From: Balanoglossus misakiensis
Lineage: Eukaryota; Animalia; Hemichordata
Assembly (NCBI GenBank): GCA_040954595.2
Contig: CM082577.2
Span: forward strand, 18,698,303-18,762,302
Length of the DNA: 64,000 nucleotides
Reading direction: 5' to 3'
Shown here piece by piece: positions 132 through 64,000 of this stretch (position 1 is the first letter of the stretch; each line of letters starts with the position of its first letter). Under the pieces are notes generated by a model. It saw only the letters and a program-made list of their open reading frames with translations. It made no database searches and had not been told where the DNA came from. A program made the position numbers and the translations under genes.

Positions 132-164
132 TAGGGGCACAAGCCTATCGGGCTTGTGCCCCTA
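132..164 (+). repeat. 5' terminal hairpin / asymmetric TIR of the autonomous element
   Basis: 14-bp perfect stem, 5-nt loop. Confidence 0.92.
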
Positions 165-3100
165 TTGGTATTGTTGGAATTTTTCTTTATTATTATTATT
201 ATTATTATTATTCTTCTTCTTCCGAGAAATTCGGCCAGGTAGATCTGGAAAACCGCAGCACCTAGGGGGCTGAAACTTGGTAGGGTGGTAGGGGCCAATG
301 AGTAGACGTGCAGTGGCTCGTGAATATTTAATAAGTCACGTGACCTGGCGGCCATATTGGATTTCCTGAAAATCGTTAAATGAGTCCTTCTCTAAAACCA
401 CTGGGCCGATCGAGTTCAAATTTGGTGTGCAGGTAGCCTACCTTATGTCCATCATTTTACCCCATTAAAATCATGACGTCATACATAACGTTTTTTTGCT
501 ACAATTGTTTTTCTGAAAAACTACTTAAAACTTTAAAAATCTTCTTCTCCAGAACCAGCGGTTACCGAGTCTCGGGATTTGGGATATGTGGTCACCTAAC
601 CTATGTCTATCAAGTTTGCAAAGCGCACTGTGATTGGTCGATCATTATGGCGGCCATGTTGGATGTTCGGAAAACCATTGAAAAGTGATAATTCCGTTTT
701 GTAGCCAAAATGTTGACAGCATGGAAATTCTTTTTTTGGATATGAGTCATCATATGACCGGAAGTTGTCACAATTTTTCGGGGCAATTTTTACATGACCT
801 TTGACCCAGTTTTAAAACAACTAATTATATATGCATATTCCCCATACCTCCTCTTGTAAAAGCACCACAGTCATGAATTTTGTGGACATGGGTAACAATG
901 CTGCCAGGACATGACACAAATATTTTGGTAATTTTGGCAATGACCCTTGACCTACTTCTGAAACATCATTTTTCTGCATATCTAATTCCAGGCTAACCAA
1001 TAGGGCTAGAGCTCTGGTTTTAGTTGGACATGGCCCACTCTGGGGTCAAAATTTTATGCCCAAATTTTGGGTGACCTTGGATGACCTTTGATCTACTTTC
1101 CCATATCTCAGCATCCACGGCAGTTAGAGTCCTGGCTTTTGGGGGGCGATGGAGCACATATGGAGTCTTACACAAGACCTCATTAATTATGCACATACCT
1201 AATTCTAGGTGAACCAATACAGCTAGGGGTCTGGTTTTTGTTGGGCCTATTTCCGATACATCATTTTACTGCATATCTAATTCCAAGCTAACCAATCGGG
1301 TTGGAGGTTTAGTTTTTGTTGGACATAGACCATTCTGGGGTAAAAAATTTAAGCCCAAATTTTGGCTGACCTCATGTGATGTTTGACCTACTTTCCCATA
1401 TCTCGGTATCCACAGCAGATACAGCCTTGGTATTCGCTGGTTACCTCAGGAGACTTTTGACCTTCTTTCCCATATCACAGCATCCAGAGCACATACAGCC
1501 TTGGCATTTGGGAGGGATTGAACACATAATGGAGTCTTACACCTGACCTCATTAATTAGCACATATCTAACTAAATAGTAGGTAGAGGTACGTTTTTTGC
1601 TGGACATGGACCAGTAAAATTTCGGGTGACCTTTGCTGACCTTTGACTTACTTTCACATATCTTGGCATCCACAGCAGATACAGCCTCGGCAATTGGAGG
1701 CATTGAACACCTAATGAAGTCTTACACTTTGACTCAAAAAATAAATCAGTTATTTTTTATTTTTCCTTTTCAGATTGTTTGGGTTGATTTGAATCAGGCT
1801 CCAGGCCCACAGAAAAATATATATAAATACATGACACCAATACACACAAAGCTTACAAGTACAATAATTACCGTAGTATAAAATATTCCTCCAGTGTCTA
1901 CACAGTAGACACTCTATATATGTACAGGCATAGATATTCTTAATATAGAGATTCTCAGAGGTGCATAGGACTAGGTGGATGCGCGAATGTGATGAATACA
2001 ACAGGTTGGTAGGTCTACACAGATTGCAATGTTGCTGAAGTGGCATCCCCTGTATAATGGATTTGCTGAAGAGTGAACTGTTCCTAGTTTTGCTGAACTG
2101 GTCGTGTAGTAGTGAATAGATTGGAGTGACACAGAAAACAAGTAGAGTTCAGTCTTGTAGGCACTCCCAGTGAGTTGTGAATGTCAACTGACAATTTCCA
2201 CATAAAGGTAGCCAGAACTGATTGACCTGCTTGAACTGTGTATTAAAATTTCTATTGTTTGCACTTAAGTTCATCAGACACCATCATCAACTTCACCTAA
2301 GTAGTAAATACCAGGTGTGAACATATCAATATGCAAATGGGAAGAACCCAGTCATTCAAACTTCCATGAAATCTTATGAAATCATTTTGCTGGTGTCAGT
2401 GCACTACAATGGTCCTTCTGGAAACTGTTCAACTTATCAAATCATCGCCTGACACTAGAAAAGTAAATCATGGTTTGGTGATAACAGGTGACATCTTCTG
2501 GAAAACAATTCTTTATCTGATTGGAGTGTGGCTATCATTAACGTAGCCCATTGTTAGCTCTCTAACAAACAAGACCACTAAGATCTGTATACTTACTAGG
2601 GATAGTGTTACATGAATGTTAAAGCCATAATTATTGAACACACCTGTCTCCCAATACATTTGGTATTCTAAGTATATGTATGGGTCAGTGCAGGTCACGT
2701 GAACATATAAATCACCTATTGACAATAATAGCATATGGAAATAAACATAAACCAATGACAATAATTTAAACATCAAGGTATGAATACAGTTACATAAGTT
2801 CTTCCAATAAGTGCTGTGACTATTTTTAAAATAATTCAGATATTTATACTGTAGTACTAATAGGAACACATTTTATGAAAGTTGATGTCCTTGTCTACTA
2901 CGTTTGGTATTTCTCTAACAAATCAAATATGACATAAAAAGTAAATAATTAATGACACGCCCGTAATGCAAAACTGATAGTGTCAGTGTTGGTGGGTTAC
3001 TTTGGATCTGTCAATAACCAAGCTCATACTAAATGTTTGCGATTAAAGCGATAGTGAGATATTTCAGTGTACAGTGTTTGATTTATTCACACTGGTTCAG

Positions 3101-4959
3101 TTATTGCTACTGCAGTTAAAGCATGTTGTTAGTACATATATAGCAATGATGATTCACAGAATACAAGTCTGAATACCAGATATCAAGGATAATTTTGGGA
3201 TTGCCATTCATAGGATGTTTTTCTTGGTGCGTGTACCCCTAAAAATTAAGTCTCAGATGGGCAATTTGTATTGTTTTCTGAAAGCAAACATCATATGGGG
3301 ACATTGGTTTTTGTTTTATTCTATAAAACACCATACGGTACTATACTTCAGACAGGTTATTAAAATCGCTTCACAAATGTCTCTATAATGATTTTAACTT
3401 CAGTGTATTAAGCCATTCATGACAGCCTCAGAGACACAAAAGTAGACAGTGGTAATATGTAGTCATTCTGTAGATAACATAGTGAAAATAGATAAAAATA
3501 TATTTCAAACATTTACAAAATGGAATTGAACATTGATAAACCTAGGCTACCCTGGTGCTAATGTTTTTCCAATTATAAATCAATGTTTTACACATTTCCC
3601 CCAATGGTACTTTACATACAGTGTAATAAAACATCAATTAGAAATATTAAGTTGTGTAATCATACTTAAATTAACCTTCTTCCTAGAGAATTTTCAATGC
3701 ACCATTTACCAACTTCCATTTCATTGTCAACAGAATGAAAATGCTTTGGTACATGATTGAAATCTTTCATTCAAGCTTTACTATATTTTTTGCAATTTTG
3801 GCAAATTTCTCATTATTAACTTGACACGTACAATGGTTTCTTTAAATAAACCTTACTGATGGGTATTTACATAAAACATAGTGTGAACCTCTGATTCAGG
3901 CTGCATAATAAATATGACTAACTTGAATCATTAACAGATGCTACATCCATCTATTCTGCAGTCCCGCATTGTATAAGTACACACTCATTCTAGTATGCAC
4001 ATGGATATTGGAATCTGCACATATTCCAAATGTTGTTGTCTGTATACATATAGGATCAGATGATGGGTGAAATATGCCAGCACAGTGTTCTCCAAAGAAC
4101 AATTAAAGCATGGTGGCTACCACTCTTATTCTTAAATTTTGAGAAAGCAATATCACTAACATAATGATTACAATGTTATGGATATTATCCACCTAACTTT
4201 CCCAAAATCCTGTGGAGAACACTGTGTAAGCAGTAATGCAAACAAGGCTATTGGGACTGTTATTACTCACACTTTTGATATCATATATTGTCTGTTAATT
4301 ACAGTAACACAGTGTCAGGTTGGAATTATGACATACATTCATGTAGGACTAAAACTGTGAGTTTTGATGAAATCAGGTGAAATACATATCTCAATTGACA
4401 GTACTGGAATAAATAAAATCATCAAGAAATGACAGTCGGGTGCATTTAATGGATAACATCACAACAACATGGTCACACCCATAACATTTTGGGTATAGTC
4501 AAATAAAAGTCATGTCATGCATCAGAAATCATAAACGGCCACCACTGACTTCTTTTTTTGTAGCACGTTATAAATTGGTGTGCTTTAATATACATCAATA
4601 AGCAGGTATGTGTGCACAATGACCTACAACATGATAATATCATGTCACTATAATGATGATCCATGTAAATGATTGCATTTGAACATGTCATTTCAATGAA
4701 ATCATTGCAGCCATGTCAAACAAATGGCTCTGAAATGATAGACAATCAAATATTAGTCTCCCATCACACAAAAACAGTGACAGCTTGATATCAAATGTGA
4801 CAATTAGCACCAGGGTAACCTAAGAGTAACATATTAATTAGTTTACAACCCCCCCCCCCCCCCCACCCCAACAATTCCCAAATGGGGACCCGTAAGTCTC
4901 AAACCCCATTATCCCTCCCACCAGTTGTATGTAACACGGGTTTTAAATACTATATGCAT

Positions 4960-5340
4960 AATGCCTTAATGATGTTAATGCTGACAGAAGTACTTTGGCA
5001 GTATTTCAACTCCAATATTTTCTGTTCCTTTCACATACACATGGTCAATCAATGTACAAGCTTCTGTAGTTAGATTGCTCAAATGTTGCTTGAAACCAAG
5101 GTCTTGCATTACATTGACAAGAGATGATTTAAATATTTTCATTGATGTCACCCATGATCACTGAAGCACCTGGATACATTTACATTTCCTTTCATCAACA
5201 GAAGTAAGTTTTTCCTGAACACCTCTGCTTTATATGATGGTGGTCTTAAATTACTGCTACCACCGTATTGGTGATTGAATTTCAATCCATTCACTGGTAC
5301 CTCACTTGTATTAAATTTGCTTCTCAGATCACCATGTTTG
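4960..5340 (-). pseudogene. Degenerate duplicate of the 3' (endonuclease) part of the RepHel ORF
   Basis: CCTTTCACATACACATGGTCAATCAATGTAC and TTACTGCTACCACCGTATTG occur here and again at ~5447-5480 and ~5677-5696; this copy has indels. Confidence 0.8.
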
Positions 5341-5371
5341 GTTAAACATTGTAGATATTACAATGAGTCTT

Positions 5372-8300
5372 TCAATAGATCTTAATGCTGATGGCTTCAT
5401 GAAAACTGAAGTACTTTGGCACAATGCCAACTTCCACCTTTCCTGCTCCTTTCACATACACATGGTCAATCAATGTACCAGCTTCTGTGGTTGGTTTGCT
5501 CACGTGTTGTTTGAAACCATGGTCTTGCATGAGTTTCACAAGAGATGATGAGGTTAAAATATTTTCATTGAAATCACCCATGATCACTGTAGCACCTGAA
5601 TACTTTGACATTTCCTTCACCAACAGAAGAAGGTTTTTCCTGAATGCGACTGCTTTATAGGATGATGGTCTGTAAATTACTGCTACCACCGTATTGATGT
5701 CTTTGACATAAAATGTAAGATATTCCAAGTTACTAACAGGCAAATCCAAAATTTCAACAGATTGACTTCCTTTGACGTAGAGGCCAACACCACCATGATG
5801 TTGCAACTGCAACTGTGAAGAATTCATATCAAAGTTGTTATACGATTTTGACCGAGGCTTGTGACTGAATTCAAATCCATTCACTATCACATCACATTTT
5901 GTCTGGTTCTCAGTTAGCCATGTTTCCGTCAAACAAATAAAGTCTGACTCCAAGTATTCCTTGCCACTACGAATATCTTCCATGTGGTTCAGAAGACCTT
6001 CAACATTATGAAGTATAAAAGAGCATCTATAGTTTGGCTGTAATTGCTCAAAGCACCCATCAACAAACTTTGGCATCATTTCCAAGGCTGCTTGAACCTT
6101 TTCATTGCAATATATAGAAGATGTCTTAAATTCATCAATTATTAGCCCATCTAATGATGTCACTCGACTCAATGCAACATATGCCTGTCCTGGTGCAAAT
6201 ATCTTCTTTAAACTGACAACAGCTTTTTCAACTGTTAATCCCTGTACCTTATGCACTGTACATGCCCATGCTAGTTTCAGAGGAAATTGTCTCCTAATAC
6301 CACCATTACTTGCAACAGACATTTCCTGAGGTTCTATACGGGTGGTGTTTTCAGGAAGGTCAGATATATTTACACGGTTCTTGTTTCGCAATCCTTGGCC
6401 AACTTTCACATTGTCAAATACAACATAAACAGCAGTTGGAAAGCTTTCATTTGGTTTCACATCAATGTGACATACTGATCCAAATACACCATTCACCAAT
6501 CCATCAGAGACATCAATATTTTGTGTCAGTTGCACTCGTGCACCCTTAGCTAGAGTGAGAGTCTTTGGTAAAGTGGTCCTATAGACCTTGGCATGATGGC
6601 CTTCCTTTCTTTGGAGTTTCCCAGTCTTAGTATTCTTACTAAAATCTTGTGCTTCAATACATACAGGATCAGAGCACAAGGAATGTAGCATTGTGATATT
6701 GCAATTGTTAACTTCTGCATTTGTAGCAAAGATGTGAATTGCCTCAGATGCTTCACCAGTCACACGGTTATTGAACATTTCTAGATCATTTGCACTCAGT
6801 GTGTGCCCTTTCTTGTGAATTCTTACTCTATTTAGTGCTTCTGCAAATGCACAGTCCTTTTGTCTCATTATTTCAGTGAGTTCCACAATTTTGAAATTAT
6901 TCCACATATTGATGGCATCATTTTCCACACACAGTGGACTTGCTTTCACAGGTGGCAGCTGATAAAAGTCACCCACAGCAATAACACACACATTTCCAAA
7001 TGGTGAACCACTTGGTGTTTGTTTGATTTGACGTAATCGTCCATGTACGTAGTGAAATAATTTTCTGTCTACCATAGAAATCTCATCTATTATTAAAATC
7101 TGAAGATTTCCCAATTTGGAACGAAGAGTGTTGAGTTTTTCTTCACGTAGTGGCTCATATGGTAGTTTTGAGTCTACTGCTATTGAAAATGCATGATGGA
7201 GAGTTTCACCTCCTACATTAAATGCTGCAACTCCAGTTGAGGCTGTTACCTGTATTGATTTTTCATCTGGGTTAGCCATTACACGAGATAGAATTCGTTT
7301 GGCTTCATGATATATGGTTTTGATTAAATGGCTTTTCCCTGTGCCAGCACCACCACTGACAAACAAATAAAGAGGTTCTGGGTTCTTGCCATTGCTTTTA
7401 TCCAGACACCACTGTCTGACATTATAAAAGACTTCTGCCTGTTTCCTGTTCAGTGACCTACACATTGCTTGAACATCAGCCCTCCTTACTTCAGAGGTAG
7501 AAATTTCTATGTGGCAATCACCTTTTGGTTTGTGCACCAAATCTGGAATATCCTCCTCATTTACATCATCATCAGGCAATTGTTGACGTTCATCAATGCA
7601 TTCTAATCTGTCTATTTCACTTTCTGGACAGATTTGGGCCCATGCGTCCTCCAGAGGACCACTTCCTTCAAGGAGCTCTTCAGCTAAATCAACGGCATCA
7701 GCCTCTTTCTCAAACATTGCTTTATTTGCATCTACTATGACTTTCACTGTTTGTATAGAAGCAGATCCACACTTCACTGCACCCGCAGAATAGAAATTTT
7801 CATATGTTTCAAACCCATTTGGTTTCAATTGGGAATCAACCCAGTGTGGCAAGAAGAGTTCTAACATAGTGCGGTAATACTTTTCTGGAAATTTGGTCAC
7901 AGAAAATCTTGCATATCTAATGACAGCTGGATCAGTTCGAGATCTTTTTTGCATGTAACCTGCACCATTTTCCAACTTCACTATTGGATTTGCACGTTTC
8001 TCAGTGGTGGTATTTGTCACTTCTGATTTTGACACTATTCGATATTCTGAACAAAATGTCGCAAGACACATGTCGTCAAACTCGTCATCATTTGGTCTGT
8101 TCTTGTATCTGTCTACAATGCTATTGTACCAGATATCATCCTCATTCATATCATCTCCTGTCATTTTGCTACGTATTACACTCAATGGCAAACTCATTTT
8201 GATAGGGGTTTCTCCAGTTGGAATGAACTGGACTTTTCGAGATGATTGCTTCAGTTTCAATCCACACAGTCTATATACAGCCTCTTGAGCACTTACTTCT

Positions 8301-11300
8301 CTGTTGTGCAGATAAACACTGCCTAATTGTTTCAGTGCAGATTTAGCATCCACATTTCCCTCTTTGTTTGCTTCTCTCTGTGCATTTTCCAGCAGTAAAC
8401 CCATTTCTCTCTCTGCCTTAGAGATATATGACACAATGTACACAACACAGGCATAAGCATCCACAACAAACTGAATGTCCATGTTTGCATCCCAGCAACG
8501 GAGAAGGTTGGCATTATATTGGTTCACCCAAACATCATTTGGTTCACGCTTTAATACTACACTTGTTTTCCTTGCCAAAATTGCATGTGCTTTCTCAAAC
8601 ATCTCCTGAGAAATGCTGACCTCATTAAACAGTGCATCAACCGAATCAATCTGTTTCTCTTTGTCATGCAGGCATGTCCACACTTTTTCCAAAATATTCC
8701 TAGCAGCCATCTGGCTCATCACATTCTCAATTAACTGAGTTGTGTCACTTTGACATTTCTCTTCAAGTGTTGCGTTATCGTCATCAAGGTTTGACTTCTC
8801 ACCTTCACCTGTCATTTCTATATCTATATCAGGACGGCATATGAACGTTTTCTTTGATGGTGGTCGTGGAAAGTTGAATCTGCATCTAGTGCCCTTTTTC
8901 TTGCAAGATTTGGAGTGCCTTGAGCTGTGTTTCTGAACTTTATTCACAATCTCTTGCAATTCCTCATCCTCCTCAACAGAAGGCATTTGACATGTTACAT
9001 ATCTGTCAACAAAATCAACTACATCTTCATCAGTATCTCTATCAACCTTTGGTGCATTTTCAACCCAAAATAGGCAGTGTGTATGTGGTGAGCCTCGTTG
9101 TTGAAACTCGACTCGATAAAAATAATCTTTGATATTTCCAATAGGATTGGCTGGTGACATGATGACTTCTCTCAGAAAACAATGAAATCTGTGATCAAAC
9201 ATTCTGGCTGCTGTTACAGGATTTCGTCTCAAGATAGCACATTTCTCAGACCATTCAAGATCCTCAGCATTACGTACATCTCCTTCTCCACGAAGTATAG
9301 TCTCAATAACTTCTTTCCACCGTAAATCGGCAGCAGAAAATGAGCAAAACCATGTTGGTATACCCAACTGTCTGATCATTGCAAACAGGTCTTTTTGTGT
9401 TGCTTGCCAATAAGGAGGAGTTCCTCTTATAGGTTTTAAAAACTTATAGCCTTCATCAGACTTCAAAATCTGTTTCAAAGATTCACTGTCACTTAAAACA
9501 TCAGATGTCACTTTTTTGCCACAAGCATTAGCAGTTCCTTTCCTCAAAGCAATTGACACATTGGATACAACCTGGTTAATTTCAGACAGATATTGCGCAT
9601 AAAAGATATAGTCTGTGCTTTTTGAAAATCTGTTACTTGCATTCATTACACGACCTTGCAGGTATCGTCCTATTGTTATCCTAACCTCTCGGTCATCGTG
9701 AAATGTGGGTGACCCAGTTGGGAATAGCACAGGAAAGCACTTAGCTTCATTCAACTTTTCCATCAACAGACAAACAGGTTTATTACCCTCTGCTGGAGCA
9801 ACACAAGATATATCCTCAAAGTGATAATCAAGAATATCCTGACCTATGTCAATTGGTTGGAGGCATGTGTCCATCAATATTCCATTAGTATCTTTGTTGG
9901 ACACATTGTTATCTTCTGTGTCTGATGACACATCATTACTTTCAGTATCTGAAACATTTCCTTTGGTCTTTTCATTGTTTTCATCATTGCTTTTGGTGTT
10001 AGACTTTTCTGATTTGCTTTCAGCATCTGAAATAACTTCTTCAGTCTTTTCAAGAGTATTTTTCCAATTCATATTGAATGTTATATCACTGTAATACTGA
10101 TTATTTGTCTGTAGGTATTCCAAAGCATTCTGAATGTGTCGTTTGTTTACAAACTGATATTCATAGTAACCTTTATAACTCAGTTTTCGCTTCAATTTCA
10201 CCCTTATCATCTGATCATCAAACTCATTCCGTGGCAAAATATTTGTAGCCTTCTTTATATCAGAAGGGACACACACTACAGGTCCATGAACTCCATTCTG
10301 ACCACCCTTAGGTAATGCCAACATTTTCATGAATGGAATATTTAATGCAATTAAATGTTGCTCAAGTGAGTTGAGGCATTTCAATTCAGGAGGGACTGAT
10401 GTGACATGAAGGTTGTTTGCAACAGCTTGAACTGGCATCTCTCCACGTAAAAGTTTTCTATGGCATGTGAAACAAATCCACAATTTACTGGCTGCATTAT
10501 TCTTGAGAGGGCAGTCAGCCATACATGTCGAGGCACATTTGTGAACATATTCTTCTGATATACATTTCACAGCAATATCAGATGTAATTCTGTTACTGTA
10601 ATATTTATCCTTGTTGCAAACAATTACTTGTTTCCTGAAAAGTCGACGATGACAAACTGAACATACACAATTTGGACCTTCTGAGGCAGTATTTCTAAAA
10701 TTAGCAATAACATGTTGAACATTTTGCTTGTCAATGTCATTCTGTATCATCTGACACCTGCTTCTCTTCAATGCATTATCTTTGTAATGAGGGTCATTCT
10801 CATATCGTTGAATACTCTGTGTCTTCTTTGATTCACGAAAGTTTACGTCTTGGTGATATTTTTGGGATACTTGTTGGGACATTTGTGCTTTATGTGCTTC
10901 CCGAAAGTCAGTATTTTGTTCATATTTTACTCTTACGCATGCCTTCTGTGCTTCCCGAAAATCAGGATTTTGTTCATAATTTACTCTTATGCGTGCCTTC
11001 TGTGCTTCCCGAAAATCAGGATTTTGTTCATAATTTACTCTTATGCGTGCCTTCTGTGCTTCCCGAAAATCAGGATTTTGTTCATAATTTACTCTTATGC
11101 GTGCCTTCTGTGCTTCCCGAAAATCAGGATTTTGTTCGTAATTTACTCTTATGCGTGCCTTCTGTGCTTCCCGAAAATCAGGATTTTGTTCGTAATTTAC
11201 TCTTATGCGTGCCTTCTGTGCTTCCCGAAAATCAGGATTTTGTTCGTAATTTACTCTTATGCGTGCCTTCTGTGCTTCCCGAAAATCAGGATTTTGTTCG

Positions 11301-12817
11301 TAATTTACTCTTATGCGTGCCTTCTTTGCTTCCCGCAAATCAGGATTTTGTTCATATTTAACCCTGGACTGTGTCTTTTTGGCGTCCCGATAGTCGGCAT
11401 TTTGTTCATATAAATCTTTCATTTTTTGTTTCTTACTTTCTCGGATCTGATGATAATGCTGTCTACTTTTTAACTTCTTTGTCTCTCTATATTGAGAATT
11501 ACTGTGGTACAATTCTGATTCAGATATTGCCCTGCAGCTCTTTGCAGTGGTCTCATTACATTCATATTTTTGTTTTCTGATTTTCTTTCGTAATCGTTCA
11601 CTCATTGCTGGTCTCTTACCTCTTCCTTTTGTAACACTTTCAGTTTCATCACTTACGTGGAAATTTCCTTTCTTGTCCAATGGACTCTTTAGTGGAACAC
11701 AACTGCCACTATCTGCCTCATTGTGGAATTCATTAGTCATACCTTCACTTGAGACAAGTTCATCACATTCAATGTGTGTAGAGTCAGATGTTACCATCTC
11801 ACGTGTCTTTACACTCTTGACAATTTCAAAATGATCTCTGTTGCGATGGTTCAGGTATATACCTACACCTTTATCAACATTACTTTTATTAATTGCATTA
11901 CAATAATGTATTAGCCATGTTCCAGAACTATACACATAGATGTTAGTTTGTAAGAGATCGGCAGCGGCCAAGATCTCATTTTCGGAACCCCAGATTGTTA
12001 GGCAATTCATTCTAGACTTTGCAATATAATCAGCAACTGATGTATATCCTTGGTCTTGGTCCAGCCAACCAAAATATGCACTGTCATTTGCAATCATGTG
12101 GTTTACAATGGCCTTTCGCATTACAGCATGGTTACGTTCACTGCCACTAATGGCATACGACAAAGCTCTAAACAAACAATTACCATCACCGATAATAGAC
12201 TTCATATTGCATGGTTCACCAATTTCAACACTACGAATTTCATCGAGCATTTCAACTTTATTTCCATATTTTATGTGAAGCTTACAGCATAACTCTTGGC
12301 ATATGGTGGTGGTTACAGGAGAGAAAACAAATTCATTCGGGGTAACATTCTGAATAATACATTCATTGTCATTTCTCTTGTGTGCAATATCAACTGCTTT
12401 CTCAATCTGTAAATTTCCATTAACACAAGTGACAATGTCACCATTTGCAGGTACCCTAGAATCATTGGTTCCCCGAAGGGAAGTTTCAAAGTTTTCACCC
12501 TTCGAACACCGAAGGTTTGAACCCCGAAGGGAAGTTTCACAGTTTTGATCCTTCGAACACCGAAGGCTGGCACCCCGAAGGGTATTGTCGCTGAGATTAT
12601 AGAGGGCAGCATCCTCTTTGATTACGTCGCTGTTTTTTGAGAGGGCAGCATCCTCTGTCATATCGAAGCTGTTTTTTGAGAGGGCAGCATCCTCTGTTAT
12701 ATCGAAGCTGTTTTTTGAGAGGGCAGCATCCTCTGTCATATCGAAGCTGTTTTTTGAGAGGGCAGCATCCTCTTTCATCTGACTCCTCTTCTTCCTCCAG
12801 TTCCTAGAGCGTGGCAT
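5372..12817 (-). CDS. Helentron RepHel transposase: OTU cysteine protease, Cys/His Zn-binding region, HUH Y2 Rep, PIF1-family SF1B helicase, C-terminal AP endonuclease (EEP)
   Basis: 2481-aa uninterrupted ORF. OTU: GDGNCLFRALS...WG...DHF. Rep: PTWFCSFSAAD, VEFQQRGSPHTH, YIVSYISK. Helicase: GGAGTGKS, IIDEISMV, GDFYQLPPV, EIMRQ, QFPLKLAWACTVHKVQG, GQAYVALSRV. EN: HNVEGL, LTETWL, IYRP, GDFN, IDHVY. Confidence 0.96.
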   Translation of the reverse strand: MPRSRNWRKKRSQMKEDAALSKNSFDMTEDAALSKNSFDITEDAALSKNSFDMTEDAALSKNSDVIKEDAALYNLSDNTLRGASLRCSKDQNCETSLRGSNLRCSKGENFETSLRGTNDSRVPANGDIVTCVNGNLQIEKAVDIAHKRNDNECIIQNVTPNEFVFSPVTTTICQELCCKLHIKYGNKVEMLDEIRSVEIGEPCNMKSIIGDGNCLFRALSYAISGSERNHAVMRKAIVNHMIANDSAYFGWLDQDQGYTSVADYIAKSRMNCLTIWGSENEILAAADLLQTNIYVYSSGTWLIHYCNAINKSNVDKGVGIYLNHRNRDHFEIVKSVKTREMVTSDSTHIECDELVSSEGMTNEFHNEADSGSCVPLKSPLDKKGNFHVSDETESVTKGRGKRPAMSERLRKKIRKQKYECNETTAKSCRAISESELYHSNSQYRETKKLKSRQHYHQIRESKKQKMKDLYEQNADYRDAKKTQSRVKYEQNPDLREAKKARIRVNYEQNPDFREAQKARIRVNYEQNPDFREAQKARIRVNYEQNPDFREAQKARIRVNYEQNPDFREAQKARIRVNYEQNPDFREAQKARIRVNYEQNPDFREAQKARIRVNYEQNPDFREAQKACVRVKYEQNTDFREAHKAQMSQQVSQKYHQDVNFRESKKTQSIQRYENDPHYKDNALKRSRCQMIQNDIDKQNVQHVIANFRNTASEGPNCVCSVCHRRLFRKQVIVCNKDKYYSNRITSDIAVKCISEEYVHKCASTCMADCPLKNNAASKLWICFTCHRKLLRGEMPVQAVANNLHVTSVPPELKCLNSLEQHLIALNIPFMKMLALPKGGQNGVHGPVVCVPSDIKKATNILPRNEFDDQMIRVKLKRKLSYKGYYEYQFVNKRHIQNALEYLQTNNQYYSDITFNMNWKNTLEKTEEVISDAESKSEKSNTKSNDENNEKTKGNVSDTESNDVSSDTEDNNVSNKDTNGILMDTCLQPIDIGQDILDYHFEDISCVAPAEGNKPVCLLMEKLNEAKCFPVLFPTGSPTFHDDREVRITIGRYLQGRVMNASNRFSKSTDYIFYAQYLSEINQVVSNVSIALRKGTANACGKKVTSDVLSDSESLKQILKSDEGYKFLKPIRGTPPYWQATQKDLFAMIRQLGIPTWFCSFSAADLRWKEVIETILRGEGDVRNAEDLEWSEKCAILRRNPVTAARMFDHRFHCFLREVIMSPANPIGNIKDYFYRVEFQQRGSPHTHCLFWVENAPKVDRDTDEDVVDFVDRYVTCQMPSVEEDEELQEIVNKVQKHSSRHSKSCKKKGTRCRFNFPRPPSKKTFICRPDIDIEMTGEGEKSNLDDDNATLEEKCQSDTTQLIENVMSQMAARNILEKVWTCLHDKEKQIDSVDALFNEVSISQEMFEKAHAILARKTSVVLKREPNDVWVNQYNANLLRCWDANMDIQFVVDAYACVVYIVSYISKAEREMGLLLENAQREANKEGNVDAKSALKQLGSVYLHNREVSAQEAVYRLCGLKLKQSSRKVQFIPTGETPIKMSLPLSVIRSKMTGDDMNEDDIWYNSIVDRYKNRPNDDEFDDMCLATFCSEYRIVSKSEVTNTTTEKRANPIVKLENGAGYMQKRSRTDPAVIRYARFSVTKFPEKYYRTMLELFLPHWVDSQLKPNGFETYENFYSAGAVKCGSASIQTVKVIVDANKAMFEKEADAVDLAEELLEGSGPLEDAWAQICPESEIDRLECIDERQQLPDDDVNEEDIPDLVHKPKGDCHIEISTSEVRRADVQAMCRSLNRKQAEVFYNVRQWCLDKSNGKNPEPLYLFVSGGAGTGKSHLIKTIYHEAKRILSRVMANPDEKSIQVTASTGVAAFNVGGETLHHAFSIAVDSKLPYEPLREEKLNTLRSKLGNLQILIIDEISMVDRKLFHYVHGRLRQIKQTPSGSPFGNVCVIAVGDFYQLPPVKASPLCVENDAINMWNNFKIVELTEIMRQKDCAFAEALNRVRIHKKGHTLSANDLEMFNNRVTGEASEAIHIFATNAEVNNCNITMLHSLCSDPVCIEAQDFSKNTKTGKLQRKEGHHAKVYRTTLPKTLTLAKGARVQLTQNIDVSDGLVNGVFGSVCHIDVKPNESFPTAVYVVFDNVKVGQGLRNKNRVNISDLPENTTRIEPQEMSVASNGGIRRQFPLKLAWACTVHKVQGLTVEKAVVSLKKIFAPGQAYVALSRVTSLDGLIIDEFKTSSIYCNEKVQAALEMMPKFVDGCFEQLQPNYRCSFILHNVEGLLNHMEDIRSGKEYLESDFICLTETWLTENQTKCDVIVNGFEFSHKPRSKSYNNFDMNSSQLQLQHHGGVGLYVKGSQSVEILDLPVSNLEYLTFYVKDINTVVAVIYRPSSYKAVAFRKNLLLLVKEMSKYSGATVIMGDFNENILTSSSLVKLMQDHGFKQHVSKPTTEAGTLIDHVYVKGAGKVEVGIVPKYFSFHEAISIKIY
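10890..11410 (-). repeat. In-frame 54-bp tandem repeat (18 aa, YEQNPDFREAQKARIRVN), about 9 copies
   Basis: Unit TGTGCTTCCCGAAAATCAGGATTTTGTTC(A/G)TAATTTACTCTTATGCGTGCCTTC repeated. Confidence 0.95.
12465..12775 (-). repeat. In-frame N-terminal repeats: 39-bp unit (EDAALSKNSFDMT, ~4.5 copies) and 51-bp unit (SLRGSNLRCSKGENFET, ~2.3 copies)
   Basis: Visible in both DNA and translation. Confidence 0.9.
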
Positions 12818-20817: not shown

Positions 20818-20818
20818 T

Positions 20819-52250: not shown

Positions 52251-52680
52251 GTCGCTCATTCACCATGATACTATGCCCATTCAACATACGGTGCGCGTTT
52301 GGCTTTATACTATGCCGACATGTCATTATGATATGCTATTCCTAACCCCAATTCCGTCAAAGAGGGCGCACTTATACACATGACGGTACTGAAGTAAGAC
52401 TTGGATTCGACCATCGCGGTTTGGCATCTGCAGTACGAGTATGAAAATAAGTTTTTATAACTCTGTAAAAATATGAATATATTTGATCAAACTCTTTCGA
52501 CATGTTATGTATGATATTTTTGGCACCAAATCACAGTTTTTGCACATCAGAAATTGTTTAATACATATTTTATCATCGAGAAACATACTTCGATGATAAA
52601 AAGATATAATTTTGAAATTTTCGGCTTGAATAAACATTTTTTGGGTGAGAAAAATGTCATACATAACAAGTACAGATTAA

Positions 52681-54310
52681 ATTAAAGCTGCAAGCAGCGT
52701 TGGCGGGGCACAAGCGGTTCCCATGGTAACCAGCAAATGCCAAGGCTGTATCTGCTGTGGATACCAAGATATGGGAAAGTCATCGTCGCAAACCACGGCC
52801 CTTTTACGGCAGCGCTCTGCTCCCCCAAAAAGGACGTGGTATAATACGGCCATGTATTCAGTATTTGGTCTAGGCGCTTTCATAGTACACCCAACAACCA
52901 ATCAGATTGCTTGTTACATCCCATTCACGCATCTCATTACATCTCATTCTAAACAACATGGCGGCTTCCAGTGTGGAAGTGCTATTGTCCCAGCTCTCCT
53001 CGAGAGACGGGCTTTGATTGGCCAGATTATAATGATGTCATCTCATGAATATGCATTACCAATATGTTCAAATACCAGCGCGGTACTCCATTTTAACCAG
53101 AGTACGTGATTTCGATAGTGAAACGAAAGAAATCCGTAGTCTGGTGGGGCGAGAATGGGGAAAGTAAGTCAAAAGTCACCTGAGGTCACCCCATATTTGC
53201 ACAAAAATATTGGACCTCATACTAGTCTGCGTCCAACAAAAACCAGACCCGTAGCCCTATTGGTTCGCCTAGAATTAGGTATGCACATAATTAATGAAGT
53301 CTTGTGTAAGACTCCATTGTGCTCAATCCCCCCAAAAGCCAGGGCTCTAACTGCTGCGGCTGCTGAGATATGGGAAATTAGATCAAAGGTCACCCAAGGT
53401 CACCCAAAATTTGGGCATAAAATGTTGACCCCATAGTGGACCATGTCCAACAAACACACGACCTCTAGCCCTATTGGTTAGCCTGGAATAAGATATGCAG
53501 AAAAATGATGTTTCAGAAATAGGTCAAAGGTCATTGCTAAAATTCCCAAAATATTTGTGTCATGTCCTGGTAGCAGTGGTACCCATGTCCACAAATTTCA
53601 TGACTGTGGTGCTGTTGCAAGAGGAGGTACAAGGCATATGCATATATAATTAGTTGTTTTAAAACTGGGTCAAAGGTCATGGGAAAATTGGACCCCCCCC
53701 CAAAAAAAAAAAAAAAAAAAATAATAATAATAATAATTGTGACAAGTTCCGGTCATATGATGACTCATATCCACAAAAAGATTTTCCATGCTGTCATCAT
53801 TTTGGCTACAAAACGGAATTTTCATTTTTCAATGGTTTTCCGAAAATCCAATATGGCCGCCATAACGATAGACCAATCACAGTGCGCTTCGCATACTATA
53901 TAGACATAGGTTAGGTGACCACATACCCCGAATCCCGTGACTCGGCAATCGCTGGTTCTGGAGGAGAAGATTTTTTAAAGTTTTAAGTAGTTTTTCAGAA
54001 AAACAATTGTAGCAAAAAACCTGCAACTTTGACAGCATAATTTCCAATTACAAAAATGATGGACAGAAGGTAGTCTACCTGCACGCCAAATTTAAAGGTG
54101 ATCAGACTTGTAGTTTCTGAGATCTGAGATTTGCATTTTTCACGAAATCCAATAAGGCCGCCAGGTCACGTGACTAATTAAATATTCACAAGCCACTGCA
54201 CATCTACTCATTGACCTTGACCACTGTTGCAAGTTTGAGAAGTGTACCTGCAGTAGTTTCAGAGATCTAGTTGGCCGAAGATTGACAGGAGAATAAAGAA
54301 AGAAAAACCC
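52681..54310 (-). mobile_element. Inverted, chimeric, headless non-autonomous Helentron inside the long-TIR element
   Basis: ATTAAAGCTGCAAGCAGCGTTGGCGGGGCACAAGC is the reverse complement of the P 3' end; switches to GCCC-family 5' body sequence near 54020. Confidence 0.85.
52781..53157. mobile_element. 377-bp insertion with 8-bp TSD and imperfect TIRs (Zisupton- or hAT-like)
   Basis: GGGAAAGT at 52773-52780 and 53158-53165; ends CATCGTCGC...GCGAGAATG. Confidence 0.7.
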
Positions 54311-54429
54311 GAAAAGTGCGCCCTCTTTGACGGAATTGCGGTTAGGCATAGCATATCATAATGACATGTCTGCATAGTATAAAGCCAAACGCGCACCGTA
54401 TGTTGAACGGGCATAGTATCATGGTGAAT

Positions 54430-54885
54430 GAGCGACGTATAATGATGTAGGCACAGCGTATAATGATGAAGGCACAGCGTATAATGATGTATGCACAGCG
54501 TATAATGCTGTATACACATTGTATAAAGATGTATGGGCAGCGTATAATGATGTATGGGCAATGTATAATGATGTATTCACAGCGTATAACGATGCACAAG
54601 CAGCGTATAATGATGTATGCACATTGTATAAAGATGTATGAGCGTCGTATAATGATGTATGGGCAATGTATAATGGTGTATTCACAGCGTATAACGATGC
54701 ACAAGCAGCGTATAATGATGTATGCACATTGTATAAAGATGTATGAGCGTCGTATAATGATGTATGGGCAATGTATAATGATGTATTCACATCGTATAAC
54801 GTTGCACAAGCAGCGCATAATGATGTATACACATTGTATAAAGATGTATGAGCGTCGTATAATGATGTATGGGCATCATATAATG
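54430..54885 (-). repeat. 21-bp minisatellite in right TIR arm (inverted)
   Basis: GTATAATGATGTATGCACATT-like units. Confidence 0.9.
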
Positions 54886-57800
54886 GTAACAATGGACTTA
54901 AGACAGCTGTGGCTCTCCATACTTGTGCCCTATTGGTATTACTGGGGTTTTTTAGGGCACAAGCCAAGCAGGCTTGTGCCCTATTGGTATAACTGGGGTT
55001 TTTCATCCTTTTTTTTTTCTTGTGTAGTTTTTTTGCTCAGGTAGATCTTGAAAACGGCTGAAACTACAAATCTCAAACTTGGCACAGTGGTGCAGGCCTA
55101 TGGGAGCTGGTGCAGTACCTTTGTGAATGTTTAATAAGTCATGTGACCTGATGACTATATATGGGCAAAGTTTTCAAATGGGCCTAATTTGCATATGAAT
55201 GGAGATATCAAAATTCTTTTAGCAACTTTTGTGGACCATGTGATCAGTGTCCTACATGCCAAATCTCAAGGCCGTAGGCCAAGTCTATTTTGAGAAGAAG
55301 ACTTGTAAATATTAGTAGTTTTTCATATTTTTGGACCCAGCCATGGGCCTATACTTTCTATAGTTAAGCTATGACGCCATGTACACGTCTGTGCAATGGT
55401 CCTGTACAGTGACTGCCTACTGGCCTGTGAGCAGAATGGGACATTAAAAGGCAAAATTTCGGGCTCACCTGTAACACCTGCTAAACTCATTAATTATGTG
55501 CATACCTAATTCCGGGCTAACTAATAGGGCTAGAGGTTTCGTTCTTTTTGGTCATTGACCAGTATGGGGTTAAAAAAATTTGCCCAAATTCTGGGTGACC
55601 TCAGGTGACCTTTGACCTACTTTCCTATATCTCCGCATCCAGAGCAGTTACAGACTTGGCGTTTAGAGGGTTGGGACTAAAATTGAAAAGCCAAAATTGG
55701 GGGTCACCTGTGACACCTGCTTATCTCATTAATTATGTGCATACCTAATTCCAGGCTAACCAATAGGGCTAGAGGTTTTGTTCTTGTGGGACATGGACCA
55801 GTATGAGGTTAAAAAAATTTGCCCAAATTTTGGGTGACCTCAGGTGACCTTTGACCTACTGTCCTATATCTCCGCATCAATAGCAGGTACAGACTTGGCG
55901 TTCGGAGGGTTGGGACTATAATTGAAAAGCCAAAATTGGGGGTCACCTGTGACACCTGCTTATCTCATTAATTATGTGCATGCCTAATTCCAGGCTAACC
56001 AATAGAGCTATAGGTTTGATTTTTGTTGAACATGGACCAGTATAGGGTCAAAATTTCTTGCCCAAATTTTGCATGACCTCAGGTGACCTTTGACCTAATT
56101 TACCATATCTTGGCAACCAGAGCAGGCAAAGACTTGGCGTTTGGAGGGTTGGGACTAAAATTGAAAAGCCAAAATTTGGGGTCACCAGTGACACCTGCAT
56201 ATCTCATTAATTATGTGCATACCTAATTCCAGGCTAACCAATAGGGCTAGAGGTTTTGTTCTTGTGGGACATGGATCAGTATGGGGTCAAAAATTTTGCC
56301 CAAATTTTGAGGGACCTCAGGTGACCTTTGACCTACTTTGCTATATCTTGGCATCCAGAACAGGTACAGCATTTGTGTTTGGATGGATCGAACTATTAAT
56401 GGAGTCTTACACTTTACATCATTAATTATGTGCATATCTAATTTCAGACTAACAAATAGGGCTAGAGGTTAGGTTTCTGTTGGACCTGGACTAGTATGGG
56501 GGTCAAAACTTTGTGCCCAAATTTTGGGTGACCACATATGACCTTTGACCTTCGGCTTAAGCTTGTGCCCGTCATCGCTGCTTGCAGCTATATTTCATCC
56601 TCTTCTTTTTCTGGTGTAGTTTTTTTGCCCAATAGGATCTTGAAAACGGCTGAACCTACAAATCTCAAACTTGGCACAGTGATGCAGACCTATGAGAGCT
56701 GGTGCAGCACCCTCGTGAATGTTTAATAAGTCATGTGACCTGATGACCATATATGGGCAAAGTTTTCAAATGGGCCTAATTTGCATATGAATGGAGATAT
56801 CAAAATTCTTTTAGCAATTTTTGCGGACAATGTGGTCAGTGTCCTACATGCCAAATGTCAAAGCCGTGGGCCAAGTCTATTTTGAGAAGAAGATTATTAA
56901 TCATTATTTGTCATATTTGTGGACCCAGCCATAGGCCTATACTTTCTATAGTTAAGCTATGACGCTATGTCCACGTCTGTGCAATTGTCCTGTACAGTGA
57001 CAGTCTAGTGGCCCGTGAGCTGAATGGGACCAAAATAAAAGACAAAATTTTGGGCTCACCTGTAACACCTGCTTAACTCATTAATTATGTGCATGCCTAA
57101 TTCCGGGCTAACTATTAGGGCTAGAGGTTTTGTTCTTGTGGGACATGGACCAGTATGGGATCAAAAATTTTTGCCTAAGTTTTGGGTGACCTCAGGTGAC
57201 CTTTGACCTACTTTCCTATATCTCGGCATCCACAGCAGGTACAGACTTGGCGTTTGGAGGGTTGTGACTAAAATTGAAAAGACAAAATTGGGGGTCACCT
57301 GTGACACCTGCTTATCTCATTAATTATGTGCATACCTAATTCCAGGCTAACCAATAGGGCTAGAGGTTTGATTTTTGTTGAACATGGACCAGTATGGGGT
57401 TAAAATTTCTTGCCCAATTTTCGGTGACCTCAGGTGACCTTTGACCTACTTTACCGTATCTCGGCAACCCATGCAGATACAGCCTTGGCTTTTGGAGGCA
57501 TGGAACTCCTAATGGAGCCTTATACTTTACCTCATTAATTATGTGCATATATAATTCTAGGCGAACCAATAGGGCTAGATGTCTGGTTTTTGTTGGACCT
57601 GGACTAGTATGGGGTCAAAATTTTTTGCCCAAATTTTGGGTGACCACATATGACCTTTGACCTTCGGCTTAAGCTTGTGCCCGTCATCGCTGCTTGCAGC
57701 TATATTTAGGGCACAAGCCAGGCAGGCTTGTGCCCTATTGGTATTACTGGGGTTTTTCATCCTCTTCTTTTTCTTGTGTAGTTTTTTTGCACAATAGGAT

Positions 57801-59107: not shown

Positions 59108-59316
59108 TACGGGCCCAAGCCAAGCCAGGCTTGGGCCCGTATTGGTTTCGTTGGGGTTTTTAGGGCCCAAGCGCAAGCAAGCGCTTGGGCCCTATTGGTT
59201 TCGTTGGGGTTTTTTAGGGCCCAAGCCCAGCAGGCTTGGGCCCTATTGGTATTACTGGGGTTTTTTAGGGCCCAAGCCCAGCAGGCTTGGGCCCTATTGG
59301 TATTACTGGGGTTTTT
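59108..59316 (+). repeat. Stack of four hairpin heads (CGGGCCC, GCGC, R, R)
   Basis: Heads at 59108, 59161, 59215, 59266. Confidence 0.92.
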
Positions 59317-62300
59317 CTTCTACTTCTTCTTCTTTTTCTTCTTCTGTCGTTTTCTTTGGCGAGGTAGATCTGGAAAACTGCTAAACCTACCAATTTCAAA
59401 CTTGGCACAATGGTGCAGGCCAATGAGAGCTAGTGCAGTACCCTTGTGAATGTTTAATTAGTCACGTGACTTGATGACCATATATGGGCAGAATTTTCAA
59501 ATCAGCCTTATTTGCATATGAATGGAGATATCAAAATTCTTTTAGCAACTTTTGCGGACCATGTGGTCAGTGTCCTACATGCCAAATGTCAAGGCCATTG
59601 GCCATGCCAATTTTCAGAAGAAGATTTTTAAGTATTATTTTTGATATTTTTTGACCAAGCCATGTGCCTATACTTTCCATAGTAAAGCTATGACCACATA
59701 TTATTTTGGATAAATATGCATACATATCTCAAAATCTGTTAGACCAATCATCTCCAACTTTGGTGTGCAGCTAGCCTAGCATTGGTCAATAATTTTAAGC
59801 AGAAAAAAATAATATGAAAAATCGACCGATTTTTTTATATTAATTTTTTTATTAAATTTATACCTTTACTTATACCTCTATGGTTAAGCTATGTCCATGT
59901 CTTATTGTGGAATTCTGGTCTGTGCAATAGTCCTGTCAGTGAGCACAATGGCACCAAAATAAAAGGCACACTTTTAGGCTCACCTGTAACACCTGCTTAA
60001 CTCATTAATTATGTGCATACCTAATTGTGGGCTAACTAAGAGGGCTAGAGGTTTCTTTCTTGTGGGACATGGACCAGTATTGGGTCAAAATTTCTTGCCC
60101 AAATTTTGCATGACCTCAGGTGACCTTTGACCTACTTTACCATATCTTGGCACCCAGGTCAGGTACAGACTTGGCGTTTGGAGGGTTGGGACTAAAATTG
60201 AAAAGCCAAAATTGGGGGTCACCTGTGACACCTGCATATCTCATTAATTATGTGCATACCTAATTCCAGGCTAACCAATAGGGCTATAGGTTTGGTTGTT
60301 GTTGAACATGGACCAGTATAGGGTCAAAATTTCTTGCCCAAATTTTGCATGACCTCAGGTGACCTTTGACCTACTTTACCAGATCTTGGCATCCAGAGCA
60401 GGTACAGACTTGGCGTTTGGAGGGTTGGTACTAAAATTGAAAAGCCAAAATTGGGGGTCACCTGTGACACCTGCCTACCTCGTTAATTATGTGCATACCT
60501 AATTCCAGGCTAACAAATAAGGCTTTAGGTTTGGTTTTTGTTGAACATGGACCAGTATAGGGTCAAAATTTCTTGCCCAAATGTTGCATGACCTAAGTGA
60601 CCTTTGACCTACTTTTCCATATCTTGGCATCCAGAGCAGATATGCTTATTGCTATGTTGCTATGTGCTATGTTGGCTTGGGCCCGCTATTGCTGCTTGCA
60701 GCTATATTCTTCTACTTCTTCTTCTTTTTCTTCTTCTGTCATTTTCTTTGGCGAGGTAGATCTGGAAAACTGCTAAACCTACCAATTTCAAACTTGGCAC
60801 AATGGTGCAGGCCAATGAGAGCTAGTGCAGTACCCTTGTGAATGTTTAATTAGTCACGTGACCTGATGACCATATATGGGCAAAATTTTCAAATCCGCCT
60901 TATTTGCATATGAATGGAGATATCACAATTCTTTTAGCAACTTTTGCGGACCATGTGGTCAGTGTCCTACATGCCAAATGTCAAGGCCATTGGCCATGCC
61001 AATTTTGAGAAGAAGATTTTTAAGTATTATTTTCCATATTTTTTGACCAAGCCATGGGCCTATACTTTACATAGTAAAGCTATGACCACATATTATTTTG
61101 GATAAATATGCATACATATCTCAAAATCTGTTAGGCCGATCATCTCCAACTTTGGTGTGCAGCAAGCCTAGCATTTGTCAATAATTTTAAGCAGAAAAAA
61201 ATAATATGAAAAATCGACAGATTTTTTTATATTAATTTGTTTATTAAATTTATACCTTTGCTTATACCTCTATGGTTAAGCTATGTCCATGTCTTATTGT
61301 GGAATTCTGGTCAGTGCGATAGTCCTGTACAGTGAGTGTCTATTGGTCAGTGAGCACAATGGCACCAAAATAAAAGGCAAAATTTTAGGCTCACCTGTAA
61401 CACCTGCTTAACTCATTAATTATGTGCATACCTAATTCTGGGCTAACTAAGAGGGCTAGAGGTTTCGTTCTTGTGGGACATGGACCAGTATAGGGTCAAA
61501 ATTTCTTGCCCAAATTTTGGGTGACCTCAGGTGACCTTTGACCTACTTTCCTATATCTCGGCATCCAGAGCAGGTACAGACTTGGCGTTTGGAGGGTTGG
61601 GACTAAAATTGAAAAGCCAAAATGGGGGTCACCTGTGACACCTGCCTACCTCATTAATTATGTGCATACCTAATTCCAGGCTAACCAATAGGGCTATAGG
61701 TTTGGTTTTTGTTGAACATGGACCAGTATAGGTTCAAAATTTCTTGCCCAAATTTTGCTTGACCTTAGGTGACCTTTGACCTACTTTACCAGATCTTGGC
61801 ATCCAGAGCAGGTACAGACTTGGCGTTTGGAGGGTTGGGACTAAAATTGAAAAGCCAAAATTGGGGATCACCTGTGACACCTGCCTACCTCATTAATTAT
61901 GTGCATACCTAATTCCAGGCTAACCAATAGTGCTATAGGTTTGGTTTTTGTTGAACATGGACCAGTATAGGGTCAAAATTTCTTGCCCAAATTTTGCATG
62001 AACTCAGTTGACCTTTGACCTACTTTACCATATCTTGGCATCCAGAGTAGATATGCTTATTGCTATGTTGCTATGTGCTATGTGCTATGTTGGCTTGGGC
62101 CCGCTATTGCTGCTTGCAGCTATATTCTTTCTTTCTTTCTTTCTTTCTTTTTTCTTGTGTCAATTCTTCGGCCAACTAAATCTCTGAAACTACTGCAGGT
62201 ACACTGCTCAAACTTGCTACAGTGGTCAAGGTCTATGAGTAGATGTGCAGTGACTTGTGAATACTTAATTAGTCATGTGACCTGGCGGCCATCTTGGATT

Positions 62301-64000
62301 TTCTGAAAAAAATCAAATCTCAGATCTCAGAAACTACAAGTCAGATCGACTTCAAATTTGGCATGCAGGTAGACTACCTTCTACCCATCATTTTTGTAAT
62401 TGGAAATTTTGCTGTCAATGTTGCAGTTTTTTTGCTACAATTTTTTTTCTGAAATCTGGCTTAAATTTCAAAAATCTTCTACTCCAGAACCGGTGATAAC
62501 CGAGACACGGGGTTTGGGGTATGTGGTCACCTAACTGATGTCTATCAAGTTTGCGAAGATCATTGTGATTGGTCGAAGATTATGGCGGCCATATTTGATT
62601 TTCGAAAAACCATAGTTAAACTCCAAAAATCTTCTTCTCCAGAGCGGGCGATAACTGAGTTGCAAGATTCGGGGAGTATGGTCACTACACGGATGTCTAT
62701 CAAGTTTGCAAAGAGCATTGTGATTGGTCGAAGATTATGGCGGCCATATTGGATTTTGTAAAAAGCAGTGAAAATTTGAAATTCCTTTTTCTAGTCTAAA
62801 AATTGATAGCATACAAATTCTTTTTATGGATATCAATCGTCATGTGACTAAAATAGGTTACAATTTTTTGGCGATTTTTCACATGACCTTTGACCTACTT
62901 ATCACGCGGTATTATTTCTGCATATCTAATTCCAGGCTAACCTATATGGCTAGACGTTTGGTTTTTGATGAATGTGGATTAGTGTGTGATCAAAATATTT
63001 TGCTACTTTTCATGACCCCTTTGACCTCAGCTGACCTCATTAATTATGTACATAGCTAATTACAGGCGAACCAATAGAGCTAGAGGTTTTGTTTTTGTTG
63101 GACATGGACCAGTATGGGATCAACATTTTTTGCCCAAATTATTGGTGACCTCTGGTGACCTTTGACCTACTTTCGCATATCTCAGCATCCAGAGCAGATA
63201 CAGCCATGGCATTTGGTAGGATGGGACCAAAATGTAAAGCCAAATTTTTGGGTCACCTGTGACACCTGTTGACCTCATTAAATATGCACATACCTAATTA
63301 CAGGTGAACCAATAGAGCTAGAGTTTTGGTTTTTGTTGGACATGGACCAGTATGGGTAAAAAAAAATTGCCCAAATGTTGGGTGACCTCAGGTGACCTTT
63401 GACCTACTTCACCCTATTTAAGCAGCAAAAATACACACATCCTTGTTATGTCAAGATATAATACATCCGATAGAAAATTCTGTTTCTTCTCATTCATACT
63501 GTGCATATATAATTCAAGATCAGCGCTTGGGCCCGACAATGCTGCTCGCAGCTTTAATTCTTTCTTTCTTTCTTTATTCTTGGTTCACTTCTTTCGCGCT
63601 CTAGATCTCAGGCACCGCTGCAGGTACAGTTCTCAAACTTGCTACAGTGGTCAAGGTCAATGAGTAGATGTGCAGTGACTTGTGAATACTTAATTAGTCA
63701 CGTGACATGGCGGCCATATTGGATTTTCTGAAAAAATGCAAATCTCAGATCTCAGAAACTACAAGTCAGATCGAGTTCAGATTTGGCGTGCTGGTAGTAT
63801 ACCCTCTGCCCATCATTTTTGTAATTGGATATTTTGCTGTCAATGTTGCAGTTTTTTTGCTACAGTTGTTTTTCTGAAATCTGGTCAAAATTTCAAAAAT
63901 CTTCTTCTCCAGAACCGGCGATAACCGAGTCACGCCGTTTGGGGTATGTGGTCACCTAACTGATGTCTATCAAGTTTGCGAAGATCATTGTGATTGGTCG

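Follow-up and report, generated by a model that had tools for sequence, protein, structure and literature searches.

A stretch of 64,000 nucleotides from the hemichordate Balanoglossus misakiensis (assembly GCA_040954595.2, contig CM082577.2, positions 18,698,303 to 18,762,302 of the forward strand), hereafter called the window, is a pile of rolling-circle transposons nested like brackets. These are Helentron non-autonomous elements (HINEs) of five types, denominated P, Q, G, C and R. Each opens with a hairpin head, in which arm 1, the 5' subterminal inverted repeat (subTIR), is followed by a loop and by arm 2, and closes with an end in which a 3' inverted repeat matching arm 1 precedes a small palindrome. 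An earlier note, made from the sequence, had described a code in which both arms and the 3' repeat change together. The tight pair is formed by arm 1 and the 3' repeat, as in the published definition of the subTIR with its "partial" inverted repeat; the perfect three-way match seen in the window is a special case. The coupling of arm 1 to the 3' repeat is supported by related families more strongly than by the window. It may reflect pairing of the two ends on one strand.

A motif scan located 29 heads and 33 ends, of which 32 lie on the plus strand and one, at 52687, on the minus strand; the motifs of the earlier note were found where it had placed them. Heads and ends were paired by a bracket parse, in which heads open and ends close on a last-in-first-out basis: 24 heads were paired with ends, and 8 ends and 5 heads were left unpaired. 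Intact heads are perfect hairpins of 13-14 bp, as found in 23 of the 24 parsed heads, the remaining one being split by an insertion. The subTIR match is exact over 9-13 nt (10-12 typically) in 23/24 parsed pairs, and its 3' copy begins about 34 nt before the element end. Joins, termini and uninterrupted copies are exemplified by the following features.

97..164, plus strand: exact end-to-head join (3' repeat, stem-loop, terminus, next head), one of 11
132..164, plus strand: P-type 5' head, with arm 1 (5' subTIR), loop and arm 2 (inverted repeat); perfect 14-bp hairpin
17496..17530, plus strand: P-type 3' end, with subTIR, stem-loop (17513-17524) and 6-nt terminus
30131..31561, plus strand: uninterrupted Q-type HINE
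34747..36235, plus strand: uninterrupted G-type HINE
59266..60708, plus strand: uninterrupted R-type HINE

Bodies measure 0.8-2.5 kb between heads and ends, open with TTA or TCTT microsatellites and include internal tandem units of 155 bp and of 237-239 bp. Elements begin with TA, finish with TTTAAT or TATATT and sit in T runs: TT precedes all 29 heads, and the base found after the ends is T (27) or C (5). There is no target duplication at nested sites, where the host sequence picks up again after the nested copies. SubTIRs, 5' inverted repeat, 3' stem-loop, repeats, T-rich insertion sites and a Rep-helicase-endonuclease partner all fit the Helentron/HINE group (HLE2). Canonical Helitrons (HLE1), which have 5'-TC as well as 3'-CTRR ends, with AT targets, were rejected on account of the termini described. 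MITEs (miniature inverted-repeat transposable elements) and other cut-and-paste elements with terminal inverted repeats (TIRs) were rejected likewise, the 3' repeat being subterminal and the nested sites free of duplications.

Related families were searched for with a pattern made of the 3' stem-loop and terminus only, of which the 3' repeat is not part. At least 121 matches were found in at least 120 metagenome loci, and the 3' repeat varies widely among the matches listed, to which all counts of outside loci given here refer. Two scans of viral contigs gave no match; a scan of prokaryote genomes gave 8, taken as a chance control. A hairpin search demanding perfect stems found no heads at the outside loci, because the hairpins there are imperfect. 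Twelve outside loci with a readable head were scored, nine of them end-to-head joins and three with both ends of one copy; the short copy L011 carries a head and an end of the L012 family in cis.

Heads and ends were then permuted across 11 families, 8 of 19 rows being omitted as chimeric, near-duplicate or aged (G/C, R'/C, L113, L051, L108, L055, L056 and L077; L108 is the row in which arm 2 matched better than the 3' repeat). Arm 1 and its cognate 3' repeat form 119 Watson-Crick pairs, against 93.5 +/- 3.8 in permuted sets (0/200000). The corresponding count for the two arms is 109 against 88.6, in an ungapped comparison that penalises bulged hairpins. For the six outside families alone the arm 1:3' repeat count is 64 (1/720 permutations). 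As partner of arm 1 in the 12 outside loci, the 3' repeat is better than arm 2 in nine, equal in two and worse in one. Real junctions, when aligned, are 94.4% paired with 9 doubly changed pairs in a set of five sequences, and 87.3% with 5 doubly changed pairs in a set of seven; slid controls reach at most 49%, and the shuffles of the tool used for these counts ignore relatedness.

A second clue comes from mismatches. A CGAG block faces another CGAG block in 5 of the 12 outside loci, whereas CAAG faces CTTG in the window, and GA is the state of the 3' repeat in 57 of the 121 outside matches listed. CGAG blocks give sheared G.A pairs in DNA (PMC10085684). The tandem G.A pair would thus point to folding of the top strand, because the complementary strand would carry pyrimidine mismatches at the same place. 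Other peculiarities have been noticed in outside heads. In L012, L113, L051 and L045 arm 2 has a mismatch at one shared position, the fourth base of the G-run register, at which the 3' repeat pairs. The heads L001, L012, L048 and L072, and the segment L106:322-400, have a second long hairpin in the loop, resulting in a branched fold; this hairpin has a 16-bp perfect stem in the L012 family and is absent in L011.

Within the window the covariation is narrower than had been claimed. The core (GCAC or GCCC) agrees between head and end in 12/12 uninterrupted copies (p=0.002) and in 23/24 parsed pairs (Fisher p=2.3e-5), while the whole type agrees in 19/24; the p-values for the core show only that the ends are inherited jointly. 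Three characters are truly three-way, namely the A/C change in the core, the additional G seen in P and the extension by GC seen in G. These three of the five claimed characters stand; the other two are one-sided. The outer C of type C is uncompensated, since Q, G, R and C ends all carry G there, and the inner match of R is a change of the end only. With the five window families, the score of the true pairing is equalled by 5 of the 120 ways of permuting heads and ends, and the window alone is therefore weak evidence. In Logan contigs (three runs, one sample), too short for head-to-end linkage, the T/G change in the core is the sole listed variant of the 3' repeat, and none was listed for the palindrome. 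In trees built from 18 of the 32 bodies, the 5' block groups Q with R, apart from P and G/C (100/100), with both core states on each side; therefore either the core state changed twice or heads recombined. In the 3' block most P bodies group, weakly, with Q.

The earlier note had warned that G-type heads accompany C-type ends at 20819-28138, and had concluded that only the core match is strict. Both remarks hold. The elements concerned are:

20819..22298, plus strand: G head with C-type body and end (head swap)
22299..23776, plus strand: G head with C-type body and end (head swap)
23777..24933, plus strand: C-like head with C end; the outer C-G pair is missing from the two arms
24937..28138, plus strand: G head with C end, hosting a C element at 24991-26704

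Three G heads and one shortened C-like head thus accompany bodies in which most diagnostic columns are of type C; heads have therefore been swapped, and mismatches in the flanks of the core are tolerated. The lone core mismatch, between the head at 34643 and the end at 51657, was considered as a real chimera and rejected. It spans a tandem duplication, 32805-37285 versus 49101-56334, the blocks of which are 97-99% identical.

49101..56334, plus strand: second copy of the duplicated segment (the first at about 32805-37285), origin of the sole core mismatch in the parse

In one copy only, this segment carries an insertion of 0.6 kb (49664-50270) that has short terminal inverted repeats and TTAA on its flanks.

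The palindrome reads GCTGCTTGCAGC in 28/32 plus-strand ends and GCTGCTCGCAGC in the other 4. It was found behind 33/33 ends also when the search was started from the inverted repeat and not from the palindrome. The earlier note had called it nearly invariant and had taken it for a putative Rep recognition signal; its conservation at outside loci is uninformative, as these were selected by the palindrome itself. The stem-loop extends beyond the palindrome: two bases further out lies a compensatory pair (A-T/T-A). This outer pair is kept in 33/33 window ends and in 114/121 of the outside matches listed, against 4/8 of the prokaryote chance matches. The palindrome behaves as a folded stem-loop, though the compensatory change may reflect as few as two lineages. 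The stem-loops of DINE-1 elements vary between species (PMC2374699).

How the ends fold has been predicted on joined strands. In five real window junctions the local hairpin is more stable than the fold pairing the 3' repeat with arm 1 by 4.4-7.5 kcal/mol, and across 11 junctions the top strand is expected to have 0-1.9 pairs linking arm 1 with the 3' repeat. When the same strands are truncated after arm 1, the 3' repeat and arm 1 form a stem around the stem-loop in 11/11 cases (-8.6 to -20.5 kcal/mol). Of the outside junctions, 4/7 favour end pairing.

The anatomy, the covariation, the Rep-helicase-endonuclease frame and the nesting in T runs with no duplicated target are observed. The explanation that we favour for them, with a little less than even confidence, is that arm 1 stays complementary to the 3' repeat because the ends pair on one strand when joined, forming a transient junction stem. 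Rep would nick the top strand at the 5' T, and copying would run up to the 3' stem-loop, which would halt it; the ends would then be joined. If the join is unwound 5'-to-3', the 3' repeat and arm 1 would emerge before arm 2 and could form a stem of 10-12 bp enclosing both the small stem-loop and the join. Arm 2 would then recapture arm 1, a step predicted to be downhill in the window families. Arm 2 would be the looser partner, and departures from the exact sequence outside the core would be tolerated. Top-strand nick, terminator hairpin and joined circles are borrowed by analogy from Helraiser (PMC5876387). Joined ends exist for both FoHeli1 (PMC5148889) and Helraiser (PMC5876387), a terminator role has been given to the 3' hairpin (PMC5876387; PMC2374699), and pairing of subterminal repeats was proposed earlier (PMC4344730). 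A more speculative extension, to which we give a rather low probability, is that Helentron ends make a bipartite rolling-circle origin only once joined. Top-strand pairing of the 3' repeat with arm 1 around terminator hairpin and cut site would license the reaction by shape and not by sequence, sheared G.A possibly replacing A-T, and arm 2 would be a switch tuning the lifetime of the fold.

Several points weigh against the junction stem. The support for pairing is all comparative or computed, and full window junctions are predicted to fold as local hairpins. Inverted repeats would be complementary just as well if a protein bound the two ends in duplex form. Few hosts were sampled, 95 of the 120 outside loci listed sharing three similar accession prefixes, and the G.A state could have a single origin. 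Nine of the 12 scored outside loci are end-to-head joins and not two ends of one copy, and 5 of the 11 window joins mix types. Flanks are mismatched in 4/23 parsed pairs, the duplication pair being set aside, and in the 3' block tree the GCAC state may need one change only (81/84, weak). SubTIRs with one mismatch prevail in most HINE families of the oyster (PMC7492417). Plus-strand single-stranded circles of Helraiser are inactive as donors and double-stranded ones are active (PMC5876387), which weighs against a purely single-stranded picture.

It is possible, if rather less probable, that both ends offer the transposase one and the same double-stranded binding site, much as in common TIR elements, that the hairpin does no more than present or expose the 5' site, and that families co-vary with their own Rep. 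Identity of the subTIR is what defines a Helentron family, and the autonomous partners have subTIRs in common with it (PMC4067079). Across families the outer GGG does not vary, nor does most of the inner GC, and the sole probable autonomous copy in view has P termini; the activity of double-stranded Helraiser donors also speaks for this reading. This account fits less well with a core position that takes all four bases, each with its Watson-Crick partner in the 3' repeat, and with the ends of CGAG families, which are not alike when read as duplex, although G.A pairs can form between them on one strand. Q and R heads, moreover, differ in the core pair and one loop base only.

Template switching at a circle or tandem join could instead homogenise the three copies within about 65 bases, making the match a mutational by-product and not a requirement. 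The eleven exact end-to-head joins do bring the three copies together, template switching is known at the stem-loop origin of circoviruses (PMC2690592), and in the C-like head the outer pair disappeared from the two arms together. Copying would however perfect the repeats, yet outside families retain the tandem G.A and the recurrent mismatch in arm 2, and the swapped heads of the window were left uncorrected; we consider this process improbable as the cause.

The earlier note had supposed that the 3' repeat displaces arm 2, pairing the ends of a linear single strand, an order opposite to that of the junction stem. In the window this is unsupported. The hairpin is perfect, longer and, by the margin reported above, more stable even when the ends are adjacent, so that displacement would be uphill; the match of the 3' repeat seldom extends past the stem, and there is therefore no consistent toehold. 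Displacement is plausible in some relatives, where arm 2 is often imperfect and end pairing is predicted to be the more stable fold in the 4/7 junctions mentioned, and is quite unlikely as a general order. That no constraint acts, and that whole subfamilies inherited a few old changes by drift, would agree with the three three-way characters and the 5/120 permutations of the window but is largely refuted by the many doubly changed pairs across the 11 families and by the same pattern reported across Drosophila species (PMC2374699), and is very improbable.

The parse gave two conspicuous nests:

37329..49179, plus strand: six-deep nest, with heads Q, C, C, C, G, G (37329-37624) and closing ends G, G, C, [G, G], C, C, Q
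59108..63558, plus strand: nest with heads C, G, R, R and closing ends R, R, G, the C end lying past the window edge

A newcomer inserts either at a neighbour's edge or into the run of T that follows an older head. From 34535 to 63558 nesting is at least six deep, and almost every insertion lies in such a T run, some 50 nt past the older head; the array therefore logs its own insertion order. Stacked heads and end-to-body joins are also found in contigs beyond the copy of the window, and stacked heads in the outside loci L017, L048 and L113. Self-insertion and stacked 5' ends have been described for Fusarium elements (PMC5148889). End-to-head joins were considered as proof of circles and rejected; 5/11 link different types.

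A probable autonomous partner has been assigned in the window to P only; none was seen in it for Q, G, C and R.

132..17530, plus strand: probable autonomous P-type Helentron, with the open reading frame (ORF) antisense to the termini
5372..12823, minus strand: open frame of 2483 aa from stop to stop, the only long one of the window
12860..13197, minus strand: decayed inverted piece of a HINE 5' block just upstream of the ORF, 68-83% identical to Q and R bodies

The P head at 132 parses with the P end at 17530, and contigs from source-like runs link the region upstream of the gene to the P 3' body (16226-17309 and 16575-17309). The frame matches, above Pfam cut-offs, OTU, DUF6570, Rep (Helitron_like_N), PIF1 helicase and AP-type endonuclease domains; DUF6570 is an HLE2 marker (PMC11417382). 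Antisense frame and inverted relic agree with the ORF-reversal model of PMC5148889, which they would suggest for this copy. The frame contains in-frame tandem repeats (54, 51 and 39 bp) at 10885-11411 and 12471-12778. Upstream of it lie a MITE-like insertion bounded by TIRs (14079-14806), for which the summed contig depth is very high, and a near-perfect palindrome of 96 nt (15685-15779), and a direct repeat, 83% identical (1875-1939 and 16697-16761), is found near both edges of the unique interior of the P element. The minus-strand end belongs to a different structure:

52680..52780, minus strand: P-type 3' end within a long-TIR insertion

This insertion is a 3.1-kb element (51808-54920) with long terminal inverted repeats made of 21-bp inner units and an apparent 6-bp target duplication; it splits arm 2 of a Q head and carries inverted HINE fragments, the P end included.

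Among known systems, Helentrons and HINEs/DINE-1 (Thomas et al. 2014, PMC4067079; Yang and Barbash 2008, PMC2374699) similarly have a 5' subTIR with an adjacent inverted repeat, a microsatellite, tandem repeats, a 3' subTIR and a 3' stem-loop, and insert in T runs without duplication. Their subTIR sequences vary among families while the structure is kept, as reported for DINE-1 (PMC2374699), and their autonomous partners encode Rep, helicase, endonuclease and OTU, one reported family having a reversed ORF. Unlike in these, the 5' inverted repeat of the window is a perfect arm of 13-14 bp and not a partial one, and the 3' stem-loop sequence is common to families with different subTIRs; the window subTIRs are absent from the 15 in Table S2 of PMC4067079. 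Cg_HINE elements of the Pacific oyster (PMC7492417) share element-specific changes of subTIR, inverted repeat and stem-loop, and satellite-like internal arrays. They differ for the one-mismatch subTIRs already mentioned, and the word "nested" does not occur in the main text of that paper. FoHeli/Helitron2 elements of Fusarium (PMC5148889) have asymmetric TIRs, hairpins at both ends, stacked 5' termini, an ORF-reversal model and joined ends detected by polymerase chain reaction; they are fungal, differ in terminal sequences and provide one nested case, whereas the window nests six or more deep. Lepidopteran Hel-2/MITE01 Helitrons (PMC4344730) have canonical 5'-TC and 3'-CTRR ends, and the parts of that paper examined hold no covariation test. 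Circovirus and geminivirus origins (PMC2690592) are comparable in working only: an HUH enzyme cuts the A/T-rich loop of a stem-loop that is also important for termination. Unlike the circovirus origin, the join has no octamer match and its predicted stem encloses a second hairpin, cleavage in the window being a proposal; a likeness between the join and the nick-site motifs of viruses was too faint to support a claim.

Anatomy, family-specific change of subTIRs, family-level covariation and subTIR pairing are already published. The earlier observation is mostly real, and partly confirmed, yet describes known anatomy. Among the titles and abstract openings searched, subscription reviews being outside this scope, none reported for Helentron ends a test of covariation, G.A pairs in tandem or a model with a junction stem. 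What is new are two small clues, the outer compensatory pair of the stem-loop and the tandem G.A, and a testable model, in a new family. The mechanistic work cited here concerns canonical Helitrons (Helraiser), which lack subTIRs; for Helentrons it offers proposals only. The locus offers a candidate transposase in an open frame, termini in five natural variants, heads swapped in nature and a nest that dates itself, and tests with matched, mismatched and compensated ends are therefore easy to design. If pairing, and not reading by a protein, is the rule, this would explain both how subTIRs drift between families and which transposase moves which passenger.

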